From Escherichia phage vB_VIPECOMC06, in the sequence record PQ416618.1: 64,000 nt of DNA, one strand, 5' to 3'. The first letter of the stretch is position 1; each line of letters opens with the position of its first letter. The notes under the pieces were generated by a model, which saw nothing but the letters and a program-made list of their open reading frames with translations, was not told where the DNA came from and did not search any database. A program made the position numbers and the translations under genes. Shown in pieces: positions 1 through 47,800 of the stretch.

Positions 1-1
1 C

Positions 2-1006
2 AAAGAAGCTCGTTCATTAAAAGCAGAAATCGAAGAAGCTAACGAGCGTCTACTTAATATCGTTCTTGACGAAGACCCTACTGAGGCATTCAACAAGATA
101 GGACAAGAAGCATTCTTGATTAAATCTAAAATTGACTCATATAATAAAGTTATTAAGATGTATCATGATGGTGGTACATGTCCTACTTGTGCATCACAGT
201 TGCACCAGGGTGATCCTATTGTCTCTAAGATTACCGATAAGCTTCATGAATGTAATCACTCATTCGAGCAACTTACCTGTCACAGAGATAATCTGAGTGT
301 CCTAGTGGACGAATATAGAGCTAATGTTAAGACTAAACAGGACCTTGCATCTGATATTCGTACTAAGAAACAAGCAATGATTGCCACTATTGATAAAGCT
401 AAGAAAGTTAAAGCTGCAATAGAACAAGCCTCAGCGGAATTTATCGACCATGCTGATGAGATAGCTTTGCTTCAAAAAGAACTTGATAAAATCATTAAAA
501 CAAAATCGGATATCGTTCTTGAAAAATACCATCGTGGTATTATCACAGATATGTTAAAAGATTCCGGTATTAAAGGTGCTATCATTAAAAAATATGTGCC
601 TCTGTTCAACAAGCAGATTAACTATTATCTTAAAATCATGGAAGCTGATTATGTGTTTTCTATTGACGAAGAATTCAATGAATCTATAAAATCACGTGGT
701 CGTGAAGATTTTAGTTATGCTTCATTTAGTCAAGGTGAAAAGGCACGTATCGATATCGCATTGTTGTTTACATGGCGAGATATTGCTGAAAAGGTCTCTG
801 GTGTTAAAATCAACACTCTGATTCTTGATGAGGTTTTTGATGGTGCTGTCGATTCTGAGGCTGTTAAGGCTATAGATACCATTCTTGGAAGTTTACAAAA
901 TACTAATGTGTTCATTATCTCTCATCGAGACCATGACCCTCAACGTTATGGACAACATCTTCAAATGAGCAAAGTTGGACGATTTACGGTAATGACTGTT
1001 TCATAA
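2..1006 (+). CDS. 46: Recombination endonuclease subunit gp46 (SbcC/Rad50-like ATPase), C-terminal part; 5' end lies upstream of the window
   Basis: Frame is open from the window edge with no stop (track start 116 is an internal TTG). Rad50-type zinc hook CPTC, ABC signature FSQGEKARI, Walker B/D-loop ILDEVFDGAVD, H-loop ISH. Confidence 0.85.
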   Translation, partial: KEARSLKAEIEEANERLLNIVLDEDPTEAFNKIGQEAFLIKSKIDSYNKVIKMYHDGGTCPTCASQLHQGDPIVSKITDKLHECNHSFEQLTCHRDNLSVLVDEYRANVKTKQDLASDIRTKKQAMIATIDKAKKVKAAIEQASAEFIDHADEIALLQKELDKIIKTKSDIVLEKYHRGIITDMLKDSGIKGAIIKKYVPLFNKQINYYLKIMEADYVFSIDEEFNESIKSRGREDFSYASFSQGEKARIDIALLFTWRDIAEKVSGVKINTLILDEVFDGAVDSEAVKAIDTILGSLQNTNVFIISHRDHDPQRYGQHLQMSKVGRFTVMTVS

Positions 1007-1060
1007 ACGCTTTAACACGATGTGGTTATAATGACCACATCAAATTAAATGGAGAACAAC

Positions 1061-1249
1061 ATGGAGTATTCAACCGGACAACATCTTCTCGTTGTCCCTG
1101 AAATTAAAAAATATGTTTTGACCAATACGTTTTCAGGTGAAGAACATATTGTTACTGAACAAATGCTCAAATCTGCTTTTAAAGATGAGTATAATAAAAT
1201 AATGTCTAATCGCAATTCCGCATGGACAGTTACCGACTTCTACGAATAA
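1061..1249 (+). CDS. Small hypothetical protein in the T4 gene 45.2 position
   Basis: ATG 1061 preceded by GGAG (track start 1049 is 4 codons upstream); 62 aa; synteny between 46 and 45. Confidence 0.4.
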   Translation: MEYSTGQHLLVVPEIKKYVLTNTFSGEEHIVTEQMLKSAFKDEYNKIMSNRNSAWTVTDFYE

Positions 1250-3446: not shown

Positions 3447-4010
3447 ATGAACTTATTTGATGATGACGTCCAGCTTAACGAGCACCAAATTGCATGGAAG
3501 TCTAATGACGCTGATGCGATTCAAAAATGTGCTGATATGTTTAAAGAAAAACCTGAGAATGAATTCTTTAAAATCATTAATGCTATTAATGAAAAGAAAT
3601 CTATGTCAATTGCTCAGGTCGACTACTCAAAATTTATGGTTGAGAACTCATTATCCCAGTTCCCAGAATGTATGCCAGCTGTTTACATGATGAACTTAGT
3701 CGGTTCTGAATTAAGTGATGAAGCGCACTTCAACTATATGATGGCGGCAATTCCGCGTGGTCGTCGATTCTCTAAATGGGCTAAACTAGTCGAAGACACT
3801 TCAGAGTTACTAGTTATCAAACTGTTGATGAAACATTACACAATCAACATGAATGATGCTACAGAGTATAAGCGGCTCCTTGAAAAAAATAACAAGTTGC
3901 CAATAGTCCTTAAAGAACTGAAGGCCATGGTCACTGATGAGTTTCTCAAAGAAGTTACAAAAAATGTGAAAGAACAAAAACAATTTAAAAAATTAGCATT
4001 GGAATGGTAA
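3447..4010 (+). CDS. 62: Clamp loader small subunit gp62
   Basis: 187 aa; ATG 2 nt after the gp44 stop; synteny 44-62-regA. Confidence 0.85.
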
Positions 4011-22726: not shown

Positions 22727-23190
22727 TGGATGCTATGTTATTTAAAATGTATTTGCTTGAAGCCAAGTCGTTTAAACATATACCAGTAGAAGATAAGACT
22801 CCACTAGAAATAGCTATTCTCATTAACAAAAGTCTAAATAATCCGCAATATATCGTAGAAGAATTCTGTAAATTGCAGATTCCTAAAGGTTACAAAATTC
22901 GTGTAGAGCGAGTTGGAGCTATTACTCATTCTAAAAATTCTCCGTTTAGTCTTGAAGAAGGCATAAAGGACTTAGGTTATGAATCTACGGAAAATGCCGT
23001 TTATGTTAATCCTGAAAAGCGTTTAGATTTGTTTGAAAAGCGAGACCATAAGTATTTTGCTAAAAAATACTTTATTACATCATTAGCAGATTTAACCCAT
23101 TTGCAACGAGCTATTTGGAAATTTTTTAAGACAAAAGGTGTATCGCTAGAAACATTCTCTGAACCTGCTAGTTTTTATCTCGGTGAATAA
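22726..23190 (+). CDS. Hypothetical protein (154 aa)
   Basis: TAATG coupling with the upstream ORF. Confidence 0.5.
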   Translation: MDAMLFKMYLLEAKSFKHIPVEDKTPLEIAILINKSLNNPQYIVEEFCKLQIPKGYKIRVERVGAITHSKNSPFSLEEGIKDLGYESTENAVYVNPEKRLDLFEKRDHKYFAKKYFITSLADLTHLQRAIWKFFKTKGVSLETFSEPASFYLGE

Positions 23191-23371
23191 TATGGACTTG
23201 ATGAGTATGTTTGATGAGCCTGAAGTTGAGGCTCCTAAAGTGCATCGTAGTGAACTTGTTGATGAACTAGATAGTATTATACAACGTCACGGCTTTAGTT
23301 TACCTGTTGAAGCCCTGAAAGACCTTGCCTCTTATTATGATGACCCTCCACCATGGAGTCCTTGGAAATGA
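23183..23371 (+). CDS. Hypothetical acidic protein (62 aa)
   Basis: Overlaps the upstream ORF by 8 nt. Confidence 0.4.
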   Translation: MNNMDLMSMFDEPEVEAPKVHRSELVDELDSIIQRHGFSLPVEALKDLASYYDDPPPWSPWK

Positions 23372-23531
23372 AAGAGAAATTTAAAGAGAAATTCTTACTA
23401 GAAATCAAGGAAAAAGACTTTGAGACATGGTATCGAATGGTGAAAGGGTTGACATTGCTTTTTAAAGCATCGTTATTCATGTTAGAACAACCTGGACCTG
23501 ATGGACCTTTAGTAGGAAAGCTTAAAAAGTA

Positions 23532-23560
23532 GTTTACATTCCCTCCTCTCGTGTTATGAT
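23532..23560 (+). promoter_or_regulatory. T4-type early promoter (-35 GTTTAC, extended -10 TGtTATGAT)
   Basis: GTTTAC 23532-23537, 17-nt spacer, TATGAT 23555-23560. Confidence 0.5.
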
Positions 23561-23662
23561 AGGCTTATCTTTAAATGGAGGTCTATCATGACATGTCAAT
23601 CTGAACTTCAAGAACGCGAATACCTAACAAAATCATTCATTTAAAAATATTGAATTTTTAGT

Positions 23663-23690: not shown

Positions 23691-23718
23691 ACCTTTATCA
23701 ACCATAGGAGAAACCTAA

Positions 23719-24327
23719 ATGTTTATGCCGTATAATGAATGTGAAATTGAAGAAATGGTTCGTCGTGCTCAATGCCCGGACTATCAGGATGAACTTCAGT
23801 ACAAAATAGATGAGCAATTCAGTGACATTGAACAAAGTGTACTGTGGCAATGTATGGAAAACAAGCCAGACAGCATCCAACAAGATTTAAGTGCAATTGT
23901 TCGTAGAAATTGGTCTTCTTCTGTTCCTGAGACAATGTATCGTGGAATCTCTAAGAAAACTATGGCCACACTCGATGATAAAGGCATTGGTAGTATTATT
24001 AAATTTGACAGAGTAATGAGCTTCAGCCCAGTGTTCAGTGTAGCACGTAACTTCGCTTCATATAATTTTTATGGAACATTTAATATGTTCTGCATCAAAG
24101 ATGCACCATTTGCTTTCAACTTCCGTGAACATATGCTTAACATGATTCTGGCTGCACCATCTTGCGAGTTCAATGGAGCTTTCCCTGAAGCTACAAGACG
24201 GTCTAATGCTAGACTTATATCTGACGAATGTGAATTTATGCTCCCTATAGGGACTACACTGCGTGTAGATTCTATTATTCAAGATGGACGTTATACAATC
24301 TGGAATCTGTCTATTGTAGGTTACTGA
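23719..24327 (+). CDS. ADP-ribosyltransferase, ModA/ModB-like (R-S-E class)
   Basis: 202 aa; catalytic triad elements in order: Arg (YRG), S-x-S (SFSPVFS), E-x-E (SDECEF); position matches T4 modA/modB. Confidence 0.55.
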   Translation: MFMPYNECEIEEMVRRAQCPDYQDELQYKIDEQFSDIEQSVLWQCMENKPDSIQQDLSAIVRRNWSSSVPETMYRGISKKTMATLDDKGIGSIIKFDRVMSFSPVFSVARNFASYNFYGTFNMFCIKDAPFAFNFREHMLNMILAAPSCEFNGAFPEATRRSNARLISDECEFMLPIGTTLRVDSIIQDGRYTIWNLSIVGY

Positions 24328-24479: not shown

Positions 24480-25226
24480 ATGTTATCAAATAATAAAATT
24501 AACAAAATCAATCGTCGTCTTGACCACACCAGAGCTTCTGCGAAGAGACGCTCTAAGGATTTTAACTTAGACTTTAATTACCTTAAAAACATTCTTGATC
24601 AAAAGGTCTGCGCTTACTCAGGTGAATCTTTCAATAACTCTGTTGAAGGTGAGAAATTATCCTTAGAACGTTTTAATAATGATATAGGCTACATTAAAGG
24701 TAATGTTATCCCAGTTAAGAAAAAATATAACACGGCTCGTTCTGATTTAACATTAGAAGAGCTTATTGAGAAACGTGATGCCATTGCAAGACGTATCGCT
24801 AATCCTTCTGCCCGTAAAGTAGAGAAACTTAACCTCGACGAGAAGAAATGGGCCCAAATTAAAAAGGTTTATGGTACTATTTTAAAAATCCGAGCAAAAC
24901 GTGAAAATCGTGTTAAGCATATGGCGAACATGATGAAAAATCAACCTTTATCTAACGAATCTAAACTTAGAATTGTTGCTTTGAAAGCACGCATTAATGG
25001 CTCACATCAAGCAGAAGGCCATGAACTTACTAAACTCAACGTTCTTCTTAAAGGCTCTGACTGGAAAACTAAAACTAAATTAACTGACGCTGAATCGCTT
25101 TTCGATACATATGATAAAGTTATCCAAGGTCTGCAACGTTTTGAAAAGATCGGTTTCATTGGTAAATTAAAATTGAAACGTGGCTTACCACTTAGCGCAT
25201 CATTATTCCAACTGATTAAAGGTTAA
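24480..25226 (+). CDS. Hypothetical basic protein (248 aa) in the T4 srd position
   Basis: Lys/Arg-rich; Srd-like assignment is by position and size only. Confidence 0.45.
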   Translation: MLSNNKINKINRRLDHTRASAKRRSKDFNLDFNYLKNILDQKVCAYSGESFNNSVEGEKLSLERFNNDIGYIKGNVIPVKKKYNTARSDLTLEELIEKRDAIARRIANPSARKVEKLNLDEKKWAQIKKVYGTILKIRAKRENRVKHMANMMKNQPLSNESKLRIVALKARINGSHQAEGHELTKLNVLLKGSDWKTKTKLTDAESLFDTYDKVIQGLQRFEKIGFIGKLKLKRGLPLSASLFQLIKG

Positions 25227-25228
25227 TT

Positions 25229-25540
25229 ATGGTTTATGTATATGCAATAGTTTATCGAGATATGGAAGGATTTACTGTCCCGGTTCCACTTGATGAGCAT
25301 CGTCCTGCAGTATTTTTTAGAAAGGATATTGCAGATAAAGTTTTCGATACTTTGAAAACACAGTATAAAACAGATTTAAAAATGGGAGTTCTAAGAATGG
25401 TCGAAACTCCGCGTAAGTTCTGGTTTAATAAGCTTGAAATGAAACACGTTAAACTGGATGCGGAGACGCAAAAATTGTATCAACGAATCCTGGACACAGG
25501 CCGTATTGTTAGTATTCCAATTGCAGGGACTTTACGATGA
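25229..25540 (+). CDS. Hypothetical protein (103 aa) in the dda.1 position
   Basis: ATG 3 nt after the upstream stop; its stop overlaps the dda ATG (ATGA). Confidence 0.45.
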   Translation: MVYVYAIVYRDMEGFTVPVPLDEHRPAVFFRKDIADKVFDTLKTQYKTDLKMGVLRMVETPRKFWFNKLEMKHVKLDAETQKLYQRILDTGRIVSIPIAGTLR

Positions 25541-26850
25541 CATTTGATGATTTGACTGAAGGCCAGAAAAACGCCTTCAACGTTGTTATGAACGCTATTA
25601 AAGAAAAGAAACATCACGTAACTATTAATGGGCCTGCTGGTACAGGTAAAACAACCCTTACTAGATTCATCGTTGAAGCCCTTATTTCTTCTGGAGAATC
25701 AGGTATTATTTTAGCAGCCCCTACACATGCCGCTAAAAAGGTTCTAAGCAAACTTGCTGGACAAGAAGCATCGACTATTCATAGCATTCTTAAAATCAAC
25801 CCAACTACATACGAAGAAAACGTATTGTTTGAACAGAAAAAGGTTCCCGACTTAGCCTTGTGCCGTGTACTGTTATTTGATGAAGCATCAATGTGCGACC
25901 GTTCTCTGTTTAAAATAATGTTAGCTAGTATCCCTAAATGGTGTACAGTAATTGGAATCGGCGACCGATGCCAGATTCGTCCAGTAGACCCAGGCGAATC
26001 AACTGCGTATCTAAGTCCTTTCTTCACTCACAAAGACTTCGTGCAATGCAACCTTACAGAAGTTAAACGTAGCAATGCGCCAATTATTGATGTTGCGACT
26101 GATATTCGTAATGGCAAATGGATTTATGATAAAGTAGTTGATGGACATGGTGTTCATGGATATACAGACCTTAAATCGTATATGATGAACTATTTTAATG
26201 TCGTTAAAACTCCTGAAGACCTTTTCGAAAATCGAATGATGGCATTCACAAATAAGTCGGTGGACAAGTTAAATTCAATTATTCGCCGAAAACTTCTTGA
26301 AACAGAAAAACCATTTATTAAAGACGAAGTCATTGTTCTACAAGAGCCATTTACTAAGACATATAAGCTAGATGGTAAAAATATGACCGAAATGCTTTTC
26401 AATAACGGTCAATTCGTTCGTATTCGAGATGCTGTAGAAACGTCTACATTCGTTAAAGCACGTGGTGTTTCGGGCGAATATATGATACGATACTGGAATC
26501 TTACAGTAGAAACATATGGGGATGATGAAGAATACATCCGTGAAGATATAAAGGTTATTTCTTCTGAAGAAGAGCTTTATAAATTCAATTTGTTTTTGGC
26601 TAAGACAGCAGAAACATACAAATTCTGGAATAAAGGTGGTAAAGCTCCATGGAGCGAATTCTGGGATGCTAAACGTATGTTCACTAAGGTGAAGGCACTA
26701 CCAGTATCAACCTTCCATAAGGCTCAGGGTATGTCTGTTGACACGGCCTTTGTTTATACACCGTGTATCCATTATGCCGATTCAGAATTAGCTAAACAGT
26801 TATTGTATGTCGGCACAACTCGTGGCCGGTTTGACGTCCATTTTATTTGA
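25537..26850 (+). CDS. dda: Dda DNA helicase (SF1B)
   Basis: 437 aa; Walker A GPAGTGKTT; N-terminus MTFDDLTEGQKNAFN matches T4 Dda. Confidence 0.9.
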   Translation: MTFDDLTEGQKNAFNVVMNAIKEKKHHVTINGPAGTGKTTLTRFIVEALISSGESGIILAAPTHAAKKVLSKLAGQEASTIHSILKINPTTYEENVLFEQKKVPDLALCRVLLFDEASMCDRSLFKIMLASIPKWCTVIGIGDRCQIRPVDPGESTAYLSPFFTHKDFVQCNLTEVKRSNAPIIDVATDIRNGKWIYDKVVDGHGVHGYTDLKSYMMNYFNVVKTPEDLFENRMMAFTNKSVDKLNSIIRRKLLETEKPFIKDEVIVLQEPFTKTYKLDGKNMTEMLFNNGQFVRIRDAVETSTFVKARGVSGEYMIRYWNLTVETYGDDEEYIREDIKVISSEEELYKFNLFLAKTAETYKFWNKGGKAPWSEFWDAKRMFTKVKALPVSTFHKAQGMSVDTAFVYTPCIHYADSELAKQLLYVGTTRGRFDVHFI

Positions 26851-27572: not shown

Positions 27573-27601
27573 GAATTCAATTAAACAAAGAGAGAGAAAT
27601 T

Positions 27602-28057
27602 ATGATTACTATTGGTGAAATTAAGTATGTATCGCCTGTATCTCGTTCTAAAGCTGCAGGACGATTGGTTGAAGTGGTGGGACTTCGCACAAATGGCATG
27701 GGACGCATTAAAGAAGTTAAAGTTCGAATCATTCATAACTCCGGGCAAAAAGATGTTCAGTTCGCTTATGTAAGTCCTAAATTCTTGGAAACTCCTGCGA
27801 GCGCTCATTCTGCTTCTACCGAACCTAATGTACAGTTCAAATGGGCCCTTTGCAAAGGCGTTGAATTTATAACCGATAAAGAATTTGATTACATCGACGA
27901 ATACGGTTATCCAAGCAAAACTGATACTATGTGTGGCTTCATTAGTGACCAATGGGTTGAAGATGGTGAAAAGCTATACAATATCGTATTCTTAGGTGAC
28001 TTCCGAGTTGTTAAAGAATCTGAAATCACTCGCTATGTGTCTCCTCGTAAAGCTTAA
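27602..28057 (+). CDS. Hypothetical protein, paralog 1 of a tandem pair (151 aa)
   Basis: Shares motifs with the next ORF (KAAGRLVEV / KVAGKLVEV; KLYNIVF; WVEDG). Confidence 0.5.
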   Translation: MITIGEIKYVSPVSRSKAAGRLVEVVGLRTNGMGRIKEVKVRIIHNSGQKDVQFAYVSPKFLETPASAHSASTEPNVQFKWALCKGVEFITDKEFDYIDEYGYPSKTDTMCGFISDQWVEDGEKLYNIVFLGDFRVVKESEITRYVSPRKA

Positions 28058-28545: not shown

Positions 28546-29070
28546 ATGTTAGTTTACCGCGTAGAACGTAGTTTTTGTACTCAACGTGAATCATTACCAG
28601 GAATTGCTATCGAAGATGGTAAAGCCGTCAGAATTTGGGAAACCTCTTGGAATAAAGAACCTCGCTCGCCATACGGTTGGTCGGGCACCGACAACTCTGA
28701 AGAAACATGGGAGTTCCTTGATAAGCATGGAATAATCTCAGGTAACTTCTACCATCACGGCGACAACTATAATGTCCCTAATCGTCCTACAGTAAATGAA
28801 GACAAACTCCTTGAACAAAATATCTTAAGATACCATAGAATTGAGCACACATTTGAATTGAGTGAAGATTGGGCTCAAGGGTTCTATTTTGGATTTGAAA
28901 GTGTTGACGCGGTTTATGCATGGTTTGATGACCAGATGGATGTTGAACTCTTGAAAGCTAAAGGATACTACATCGCGATCTATGAAGCACCTGATTTCAT
29001 CCTCGGAAGTTGTCAATTAATGTTTAGACGTTCATTGGCAGAACAAGTTGATTTTATTTTGCTAAAATGA
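28546..29070 (+). CDS. Hypothetical protein (174 aa)
   Basis: RBS agaggag; early promoter upstream. Confidence 0.5.
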   Translation: MLVYRVERSFCTQRESLPGIAIEDGKAVRIWETSWNKEPRSPYGWSGTDNSEETWEFLDKHGIISGNFYHHGDNYNVPNRPTVNEDKLLEQNILRYHRIEHTFELSEDWAQGFYFGFESVDAVYAWFDDQMDVELLKAKGYYIAIYEAPDFILGSCQLMFRRSLAEQVDFILLK

Positions 29071-29099
29071 TGTACAACAACTACGGTCTATGATACTAT
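29071..29099 (+). promoter_or_regulatory. Early promoter variant (-35 TGTACA, extended -10 TGaTACTAT) with palindrome ggtcta / tagacc around the -10
   Basis: TGTACA 29071-29076; TACTAT 29094-29099; inverted repeat 29085-29090 / 29099-29104. Confidence 0.5.
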
Positions 29100-44873: not shown

Positions 44874-47800
44874 TTATGCTAAACGAACGATATAGTTAAA
44901 AGCAACGTTTTTAACTGTGTTTTCTGTATTTCCTGTGGCATTTACAGTTATTGTATGTCCATGGGAACCAATTGCAACAGTATGAGAATGAGCACCAATA
45001 CCTACCGTATGGGTATGAGCACCAATACCAACAGTGTGGGCATGGTTACCCGTAGCGCTAGTAGTACCAGACCAACTATGGGTGTGGGCACCGTCTGAAG
45101 AAGTTTTGGCCATATTCGACGATGCAGTAGCACCGCTCACGGATCCAGTGATTTTAGCGTTACCGTTTGGACCAGCACTATTGTATCCATCATAGAATAT
45201 GCTAGCGGGTACGCCGCCTTGTATCTGAGGGCCTGAACGCGCGTGTTGGTGAGCACCGGCGGAACTAGTATTACCACTCACTGTATGGTTATGGTTGCCA
45301 GTGGTATTACTGGTCTTAGTACCATAATCAAAGCTTGAAGTCGTTTTGCTACCGTAATCAAAACTAGAAGTGGTCTTAGTACCCAAATCTGTGTTTGATG
45401 CACTTGCACTATGGCTATGTGACTTAACACCGTCTGCTTCTGTACTTAATACAGCACGCCCAGATGGTTTACCCTTGATAGTTTGACCACGCATATCAGG
45501 CAGAGAACCGGAAGGATACACAGCGGCTAACTTAGGATACAAGCCAGCATCAAATGTTTGACCTTCCATTATGGCATAACCTTCAGGAGGTGTATCAGTA
45601 GGCCAAGGAATCGGAGCACCAATTGGATAACTTGAGACAATATCCGTCTTAAGGTTATTTATTGTGGTATTCAAGTTAGCAAAGTTACCAGAACCACCAG
45701 TAATATTACCATCAGTTCCTAGTTGGGCATTTCCGACTTTAAAGGGTTTAGTGATTGACACGAAATTATCACTTATAACAAGACCGTGTCCATACGATTG
45801 GCTATAAAGTGATAAATCATTTCCAGAACCACCAAGACCAACATACCAAGATCTAGTTCCAGCTTTAGAACCCTGCAAATAATTAGCAGAAGAAGATGAA
45901 GGAGAATCTAGAGTAAGCGCTGCATTACGTTCATTAATAGTTACTGGACATATCATTTTAATAGTTTTAAGACTATTACTTACTTGTAATAATCCTGTAC
46001 CAGATCCAGAATCTCCTAAATGAACATCGTGCGACATTTTAACTGTGCCAGTGTTCAGTTCTATTGTCAATGGTCTAAGATTACTTATACCGCCTGATTC
46101 TCCAGCATCTTTAGGAGTCGGGATAATATATAATGATGCTTCTGAACGACGGAAAATTGCCCCGTATTCAGCATTCCAAATTCTTAATGCATCAGCTGTT
46201 CCGCCGATTTTAACTTGACCAGTAATAGAAGAACCACCAGTTAAATTAAGCCCATTATTCATGGTCACAGCACCTTCATGTGTACTCAATCCTCCCACAT
46301 AAAGGTTGCCAGTGGCGGTCAATGTTCCTTTTGCATTTAAAGAACCTGAAACTTGCATTAATACAGGGCCTATAGTTTCGTCACCTGTAGGCGCACCACG
46401 TTGAGAATAAAAATGGTATCCTTGTCCGTCACTAACTTCAAATACAGTTTCACGATATTTATCACCAGTGGTGTTAAATGCATTACCCCATGCTTTAACA
46501 GTTACATAACTCTTATTCTGACCTGCTCGAGTACCACCTTCCCACATGATTTGCTTAGTGCCATCAATACCTGAAGCTGCTTTAAAAACTAGAGAAGCAT
46601 TAGTTCCATCACCATTAAAATATAATCCATTATTAAGTTTTAATGTTTGAACAGAAGCGATGGTACCATCAGCACGTAAATTTAATGAATTTGAACCAGT
46701 TTTAAGATCTAAAATTCCTGGTTCAACAAGAAGTCCATCGCCCATGCTAACAGACATACGACCCGTGCCGCGGAAATAGTGATACATTTTAGAATTACTG
46801 CTATAACCAATATGAGTCTGCCCATCGCCGTTATTATTACCATCAACATCGGTGCGTGCGGTAAACATTGCTTGGTTGTTATTTGGAAAATCCCAAGTAG
46901 AACCGGAATCTCGACTATAACCAACCGTCAATTTTTTAGTACTATTAATACCATTATTCAAAATGGTAGCGGTTGAAATACTGTTAGCCATTAAGTCAAT
47001 AACGCCATCACGGACCCATTTAATACCAGTATCGTTATCGCCAATTGCAATACCAATGGAAATGGCAGACTCTAAAGGATAACGCCCATTTGTACCATTA
47101 TCAGGAAGACCTACTGAAATAGATTTACCTGCGGTAATACGCCCGGAAGTATCAAACGCCCATTGGAAATATTGAGCACCAGTCCCTGTCCACCAAGAAA
47201 TTTCGTGTGGTTTACCTGAACGAGCATCAGCAATTTCATGGAAAATAGCAGAAGAAACATGTCCGCGGAATTTACGAAGGTAGTTTATACCATTAGTATC
47301 CAAATCCGTTTCGGTTGGAGTATAGCGCCAAGTCGGTAATGAAACTAAATCATATGCAGTATCAATATTAGTGTCCCAAGATTTAGTGCTCACATTGATA
47401 TTTTTGGTAATAACTTTAGGACCAATTAAAGAACCAGCTTTAGTTTCAATATTACTTTGAGTAACTAAATATCCATTAGCTACTAATAAATTTCCGGAAT
47501 CAACTTGAAAATTACCATTACGGTTAAAGGTCCAATATTTCGAAGTGCCTGTTTCATCAATATAATGCATCTTCATTGAGCCTTCATTAACTAAGGTCCC
47601 TAATGAGAAAGTACCATCTTTATAACGTTGCTTAATTAACGGGTTATATTCTGAAGTAGCGGTTGATGCGGAAATATCCATGAAAATAGGGGCTTTTGCC
47701 GTGTGTTGACCAGCCCAAGAACCAACTCCGGTGGCCTTATAAGCAAATTCGATATATCCACCAGATGCAACATTTTGTGAGCCTATTAAATTAAATGTAC

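Follow-up and report, generated by a model that had tools for sequence, protein, structure and literature searches.

The window analysed here, a stretch of 64,000 nucleotides from Escherichia phage vB_VIPECOMC06 (record PQ416618.1), carries a single gene, at positions 23719–24327 on the forward strand, whose product is very probably an arginine-specific mono-ADP-ribosyltransferase of the ModA/ModB family encoded in the early region; its sister gene has been lost through a 508-bp deletion flanked by ACAAA. To judge from its sequence the gene is already known and not new, since its product is 98% identical to the annotated ModA of RB69 (AAP75920.1, record AY303349; BLASTP). What is new is confined to one observation: a defined deletion of 508 bp that took away the upstream paralog, and how this deletion is distributed.

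Genome setting of the mod gene

The window is best placed among the Mosigvirus-type T4-like coliphages. Over the 2.6 kb around mod it shares 98% nucleotide identity with the Mosigvirus-type phages AV117, ST0, NHEP29 and PHB12, and it is collinear with phage F2 (NC_054913), in which an ADP-ribosylase gene lies at the same coordinates and the neighbouring genes within a few bases of theirs. The genes run in the order primase, dCTPase-like, soc-like, mrh, two small ORFs, mod, srd, dda.1 and dda. Of these, srd (24480–25226; gene-order comparison and a Srd family match) lies directly 3′ of mod, and dda (25537–26850; gene-order comparison) follows dda.1. The early cluster of T4 reads mrh, srh, modA.4, modA.3, modA.2, modB, modA, srd, dda.1, dda, and the window, T4, RB69 and VR5 all share the order mrh ... 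mod, srd, dda.1, dda. The closest counterparts of the window gene, RB69 ModA and ST0 gp097 (YP_009608386.1), are 97–98% identical to it at the amino-acid level by BLASTP and equal in length bar the start codon; together with F2 gp096 (YP_010068860.1) they occupy the same slot, between modA.2-like small ORFs and srd.

In several records the homologs of modA.2 and modA.4 (23183–23532 in the window) are called ‘molybdenum ABC transporter periplasmic molybdenum-binding protein ModA’: this label on small phage ORFs is a propagated name-collision error from bacterial modA. The Srd anti-sigma homolog, for its part, matches its own family at E 1.4e-99, and its N-terminal part (to about residue 160) resembles, more weakly, PHROGs of the HNH and endonuclease VII types (E 1e-11 to 4e-18), which suggests that Srd may derive from a nuclease-like domain.

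The taxonomy line of F2 (NC_054913.1) reads Tequatrovirus (‘Tequatrovirus efftwo’). A stretch of F2 of about 50 kb, the counterpart of approximately the first 49.5 kb of the window, is mostly 96–98% identical to it. Because the kin of the window near mod are Mosigvirus (ST0, PHB12), and because RB69 ModA is 98% identical, the genus label of F2 looks inconsistent. The two sequences differ at the very start: window positions 1–1062 begin inside a gene for a gene 46-like SbcC-type nuclease subunit (PHROG 77, E 2e-97), the corresponding place in F2 (1–428) holds a homing endonuclease on the opposite strand, and the alignment runs only from window position 1063 on. This looks like presence or absence of a homing endonuclease. 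Further segments of the window (27573–27820, 28549–29090 and 45036–46397) are unaligned or 87–93% identical to the otherwise 96–98% identical F2; located in MotB-like regulator genes and in the distal long-tail-fibre gene, they are typical mosaic or host-range regions.

Sequence and predicted fold of the Mod protein

The reading frame is intact in the ORF listing of the window, running from an ATG at 23719 to a TGA at 24325–24327, and its 202-aa product is putatively a Mod-family NAD+:protein-arginine ADP-ribosyltransferase on the combined grounds of homology, fold and dN/dS. A Shine-Dalgarno-like AGGAG can be read 8 nt 5′ of the ATG (23706–23710, forward strand), and because of this spacing the ATG at 23719 is preferred over that at 23725, the start used in the RB69 annotation. 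An earlier note, made from the letters alone, had described the order YRG, SFSPVFS, SDECEF as the R / S-x-S / E-x-E signature of a Mod-like enzyme, and all three motifs do occur in 23719–24327 in that order. YRG comprises residues 74–76, with the codon of R75 at 23941–23943; the R75-G76 codons (23941–23946), which hold the arginine motif, align with R73-G74 of T4 ModB and R72-G73 of T4 ModA. SFSPVFS comprises residues 101–107, and the codons of S101-F-S103 (24019–24027), the S-x-S/T motif, include the S101 that is invariant across the family alignment. SDECEF comprises residues 168–173, within which the E-x-E motif E170-C-E172 (24226–24234) aligns with E171 and E173 of ModB and with E163 and E165 of ModA.

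Membership of the T4 ModA/ModB family is, from these and the following comparisons, a secure assignment. A search against profiles of the ART family had been proposed as a check, and a profile search returned PHROG 832, ‘RNA polymerase ADP-ribosylase’, at E 9e-39. By tblastn the window Mod matched 1078 phage records, the majority labelled ModA/ModB or NAD--protein ADP-ribosyltransferase. BLASTP aligned it with T4 ModB at 32% identity over 210 columns (111 bits, E 9e-35, residues 3–200) and with T4 ModA at 34% identity over 178 columns (75 bits, E 8e-21). The gene is already annotated, in near-identical form, in about 150 related genomes, with 93–99.5% identity among sampled records; the nearest mod-gene relative is that of NHEP11, at 99.5% amino-acid identity.

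A word-indexed protein search had given only 12 close homologs, and the family alignment was built from an exhaustive representative search (30 homologs). In the 38-homolog alignment, which reaches down to 20–30% identity, R75, G76, S101 and Y118 are invariant, and conservation reaches at least 90% at K49, L57, F112, T120, E170 and E172. The residues aligned with R75 and E172 matter in T4: the R73A,G74A double mutant of ModB is inactive (PMC10468400), R73 of ModB binds NAD and E173 is essential (bioRxiv 10.1101/2025.07.11.664405, citing Tiemann 2004), and the ModA change E165A abolishes ADP-ribosylation (PMC11404850).

The protein is confidently predicted to be a single domain of about 200 aa with the R-S-E ADP-ribosyltransferase fold. 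An AlphaFold2 model made with this homolog alignment has a mean pLDDT of 95.7 and a pTM of 0.89. Its top Foldseek matches in the PDB are R-S-E ADP-ribosyltransferases (probability 1.00, E 3e-6 to 5e-5, TM 0.4–0.5): C. botulinum C3, CDTa, iota toxin Ia, Vis, Certhrax, HopU1, Tre1 and VahC. Among predicted viral structures (BFVD) it matches a ModB model from Serratia phage CBH8 (TM 0.85) and a ModA model from Shigella phage Sf22, a Tequatrovirus ModA (TM 0.86). In their canonical layout, enzymes of the R-S-E class (the cholera-toxin/C3-like clade) carry the arginine on the first strand of the core and S-x-S on the core strand that follows, with E-x-E directly preceding a later strand. The window Mod model shows this arrangement in its DSSP assignment: R75 falls in strand 72–76, S101–S103 in strand 100–103, and E170–E172 just before strand 173–175. 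No solved structure of a Mod protein appears to exist, and a preprint describes ModB as being without a crystal structure (bioRxiv 10.1101/2025.07.11.664405).

The R-S-E assignment made from the letters is thus borne out by the PHROG 832 match, by homology to T4 ModA and ModB, by the aligned catalytic columns and by the predicted fold; the earlier note had named failure to predict an ART fold as grounds for rejection, and such a fold is predicted, with a pLDDT of 95.7 and Foldseek matches to solved ARTs. The likeness to the C3-like and binary-toxin R-S-E enzymes consists in a shared fold class and an active site built on the same R / S-x-S / E-x-E scheme, but sequence identity to the window Mod is only 9–16%. 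The C3-like toxins and effectors are, moreover, secreted, whereas Mod would be a phage early protein that acts inside the infected cell and has no delivery or immunity partner.

If the protein works as the rest of the R-S-E class does, NAD+ would be held jointly by R75, in the first strand of the core, and by the S101-F-S103 strand. E172 would be the catalytic glutamate, promoting cleavage of the nicotinamide-ribose bond and release of nicotinamide, and E170, the first glutamate of E-x-E, would guide the ADP-ribose to a host-protein arginine. By the same reasoning, and from work on T4, Mod may reprogramme host transcription, translation or both.

General-purpose libraries were silent on this protein. 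A Pfam-A scan gave no significant match to the window Mod; its one sub-threshold entry, MukF_M (E 0.047), was rejected as an identity and taken as noise. NCBIfam returned no match for the window Mod, nor for T4 ModA or T4 ModB, and a sequence search of the PDB gave only spurious weak matches (ArdA, E 0.07; trigger factor, E 2). The Pfam-A and NCBIfam blanks reflect the content of the libraries, because homologs bear a precomputed PF26816 assignment and because T4 ModA and ModB are missed too. Taken at face value, the lack of a significant match in Pfam-A, NCBIfam and the PDB sequences would suit a chance occurrence of the motifs, or a Mod that is a catalytically dead relic. Either seems to us extremely improbable. 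Three motifs this short could by themselves turn up by chance, but here they are placed in homologous columns of the family alignment; family homology is strong, the catalytic residues are invariant or nearly so, and the ADP-ribosyltransferase fold is predicted with confidence. Nor does the gene look like a relic: the ORF is full-length and 98% identical to its orthologs, and dN/dS against ST0, PHB12, RB69 and F2 is 0.06–0.15, indicating purifying selection.

Loss of the upstream paralog

The earlier note had counted one such gene here and two in T4. For the window this is right: a five-protein Mod HMM matched a single ORF among the 378 six-frame ORFs that reach 50 aa or more, and the F2 annotation over window positions 1–50,000 lists one ADP-ribosylase. 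For T4 the figure holds for ModA and ModB but falls short of the full set of ADP-ribosyltransferases, which is three with Alt (PMC10468400), a gene lying outside the window; neither the Mod HMM run on the ORFs nor the F2 annotation gave an Alt-like ORF in the window. PHROG 832 seems to include Alt as well; its profile has 1480 positions and is matched by Mod at 1251–1438, and Alt too targets Arg265 of RNA polymerase alpha; it differs in being large (~680 aa), packaged in the head, injected, and encoded elsewhere in the genome.

A tandem pair of mod genes is found in ST0, RB69, VR5 and most close relatives; in RB69 the upstream gene (193 aa) is annotated ModB and the downstream gene ModA. Where RB69 and ST0 have this second gene, immediately upstream, the window, F2 and PHB12 have a deletion of 508 bp. 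Relative to ST0 the missing segment lies between two copies of ACAAA (ST0 locus positions 3628 and 4136), and alignment with ST0 places the junction in the window at a single ACAAA (23627–23631, forward strand).

Of the upstream paralog, which bears the name ModB in RB69, a stub survives at 23588–23644 on the forward strand, recognised by alignment with ST0 and PHB12 and by translation. Its 18 codons consist of the start of the gene (its ATG at 23588 and first 14 codons), followed by the gene's last bases out of frame; it reads MTCQSELQEREYLTKSFI and then a stop codon, and ST0 gp096 and RB69 ModB start with MTCQSELQEREYLTN. The GGAGG ribosome-binding site of the deleted gene is still present. 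Further upstream, at 23533–23560 on the forward strand, is a promoter-like site of the sigma-70/T4-early type (TTTACA, a 16-nt spacer, TATGAT, and a TG before the −10), which a consensus scan scored at 10 of 12 consensus matches plus the TG. Its sequence is identical in ST0, PHB12 and F2. In relatives it stands 5′ of the upstream mod paralog; here it lies about 160 nt 5′ of the surviving gene. We infer that the site functions as a promoter, and mod would be transcribed early, most likely from it.

These comparisons point to a derived single-gene state: the window has only one mod gene, very probably because a 508-bp deletion took the paralog at the ModB position. In this event the loss of a segment flanked by microhomology (ACAAA) removed the upstream tandem paralog, leaving the frameshifted stub.

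Distribution of the deletion

Carriers of the deletion were counted with a 60-nt query spanning the junction, for which an end-to-end match was required. The junction was matched without interruption in 14 of 146 related phage records, representing 11 distinct phages: phi25-307, F2, PNJ-9, PNJ-6, p000v, SSE1, S143_2, ZQ3, EP02SG, HY126 and PHB12. In the remaining 132 the match is confined to the part right of the junction, and among the matches listed this part lies inside an annotated upstream ADP-ribosylase. The deleted segment itself is found at 90% identity or more in 139 records. Counting carriers by subtracting the match counts of the two genes was rejected as unclean, the upstream paralog being present also in other genera. 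That the junction occurs in 14 of the 146 records indicates that the single-gene state is real, a derived minority allele and not an assembly artefact. In other T4-like genera (Klebsiella and Enterobacter phages, CC31 and JSE) tblastn gives one match to the window Mod per genome, so a single mod gene is not unusual across the family.

NHEP11, whose mod gene is nearest to that of the window, is annotated with two ADP-ribosylase genes, and the carrier F2 differs from the window in the mod gene by a dS of about 0.2. It would follow that the deletion was either passed between phages by recombination or arose more than once at the ACAAA repeats.

One carrier is unusual in a further respect. The retained Mod of ZQ3 (Escherichia phage vB_EcoM-ZQ3) is 185 aa long and lacks 17 residues, APFAFNFREHMLNMILA, which correspond to window residues 128–144 (about 24100–24150), a core strand and helix. 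With the upstream paralog deleted and these 17 aa of the core gone from the retained Mod, ZQ3 may be without any functional Mod enzyme, unless the gap is a sequencing error.

The retained Mod might, as a further reading, be a generalist of broad specificity, able to act on the targets of either paralog, which would have allowed the upstream one to be lost. Since the deletion is found in 11 distinct phages (14 records) with differing mod-gene backgrounds (dS about 0.2 between the window and F2), it is tolerated in nature, and the retained protein does have detectable similarity to both T4 enzymes. A search for compensating substitutions common to the deletion carriers found none, however: no amino-acid change sets them as a group apart from the two-gene phages. 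The mod genes of T4 are, moreover, non-essential in the laboratory (PMC2988021), so loss of the upstream paralog needs no compensation, and the carrier ZQ3 has its 17-aa internal deletion in the very gene that would have to do the work of two. We therefore think a generalist improbable. We are just as doubtful that the Mod of one-paralog Mosigvirus phages is an ancestral-type generalist acting on RNA polymerase alpha and on translation proteins, perhaps with RNAylating activity; if it were, these phages would be natural one-enzyme versions of the two-enzyme system of T4. The preferred reading remains a ModA/ModB family member whose sister gene was lost by deletion; as natural variation in an early region that is not essential, the deletion is nothing out of the ordinary.

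ModA or ModB

Which of the two T4 enzymes the window Mod resembles in function bears on its likely target. T4 ModA modifies Arg265 of RNA polymerase alpha (PMC2988021); T4 ModB ADP-ribosylates S1, EF-Tu and trigger factor, and RNAylates S1 and L2 (PMC10468400). The window gene is the downstream member of the pair, directly 5′ of srd, as modA is in T4, RB69 and VR5, and it shares with T4 ModA this place, a length of about 200 aa, and R-S-EXE in aligned columns. The T4 modB gene, in contrast, occupies the upstream place in its pair, which in the window is the place of the lost gene. Because the window gene is the positional ortholog of T4 modA and its product is 98% identical to RB69 ModA, Arg265 of alpha would be the most likely target; we put the chances at about even, because the sequence does not separate ModA-type from ModB-type specificity.

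It is possible, although on balance unlikely, that the retained Mod is functionally ModB-like, modifying S1, EF-Tu and trigger factor, and possibly RNAylating with NAD-capped RNA, but leaving alpha alone. Closer kinship to T4 ModA than to T4 ModB was not borne out by BLASTP: the window Mod scores only 75 bits with the former and 111 bits with the latter. T4 ModB even fits the window Mod better than it fits the RB69 protein named ‘ModB’ (111 versus 91 bits). The N-terminal helix motif of the window Mod, FSDIEQSVLWQCMENK, has an almost identical counterpart in T4 ModB (FxDxEQSVLWQCME in both), whose R73 and E171/E173 are aligned as well, and it is divergent in T4 ModA. This motif is, however, the consensus of the family, which T4 ModB has kept and T4 ModA, a divergent outlier, has lost, so the higher ModB score may reflect only faster evolution of ModA. 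T4 ModB differs from the window Mod in a longer acidic insert before E-x-E. The position of the gene next to srd also argues for modA, and used as a BLASTP query T4 ModA detects downstream paralogs and not upstream ones.

Other comparisons favour neither enzyme. In a neighbor-joining tree with 100 bootstraps, run for the assignment of ModA/ModB orthology, the clade of the window Mod (the Mosigvirus downstream paralog plus the Dhakavirus ‘ModA’) has 100% support, but the window Mod groups with neither T4 enzyme, the deep nodes having bootstraps below 50. Similarity of the predicted fold to the ModA and ModB models is equal (TM 0.86 and 0.85), and isoelectric point and charge gave no signal separating the Mod paralogs, all of which are acidic (pI 4.5–5.9). 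A ModA-type enzyme directed at alpha remains the reading we prefer, the basis for calling it ModA being where the gene lies and how databases label it. In Mosigvirus genomes the two names are positional, without support from sequence-based orthology, and annotators should treat them as such.

Discussion

In itself the gene adds nothing new, and the modest value of the locus lies in its surroundings. In T4, deletion of modA left the shut-off of early transcription unaffected (PMC2988021) and inactivation of ModB cut the burst 4- to 12-fold (PMC10468400). Interest in ModB has risen since the attachment of RNA to ribosomal proteins was shown (PMC10468400). The distribution of the deletion provides ready comparison pairs: phages without the paralog at the ModB position (the window, F2, PHB12, p000v, SSE1 and others) can be set beside phages that keep it (ST0, AV117, NHEP11). 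Paired phages of this kind, about 98% identical in the mod region, could show what each Mod paralog contributes outside T4.
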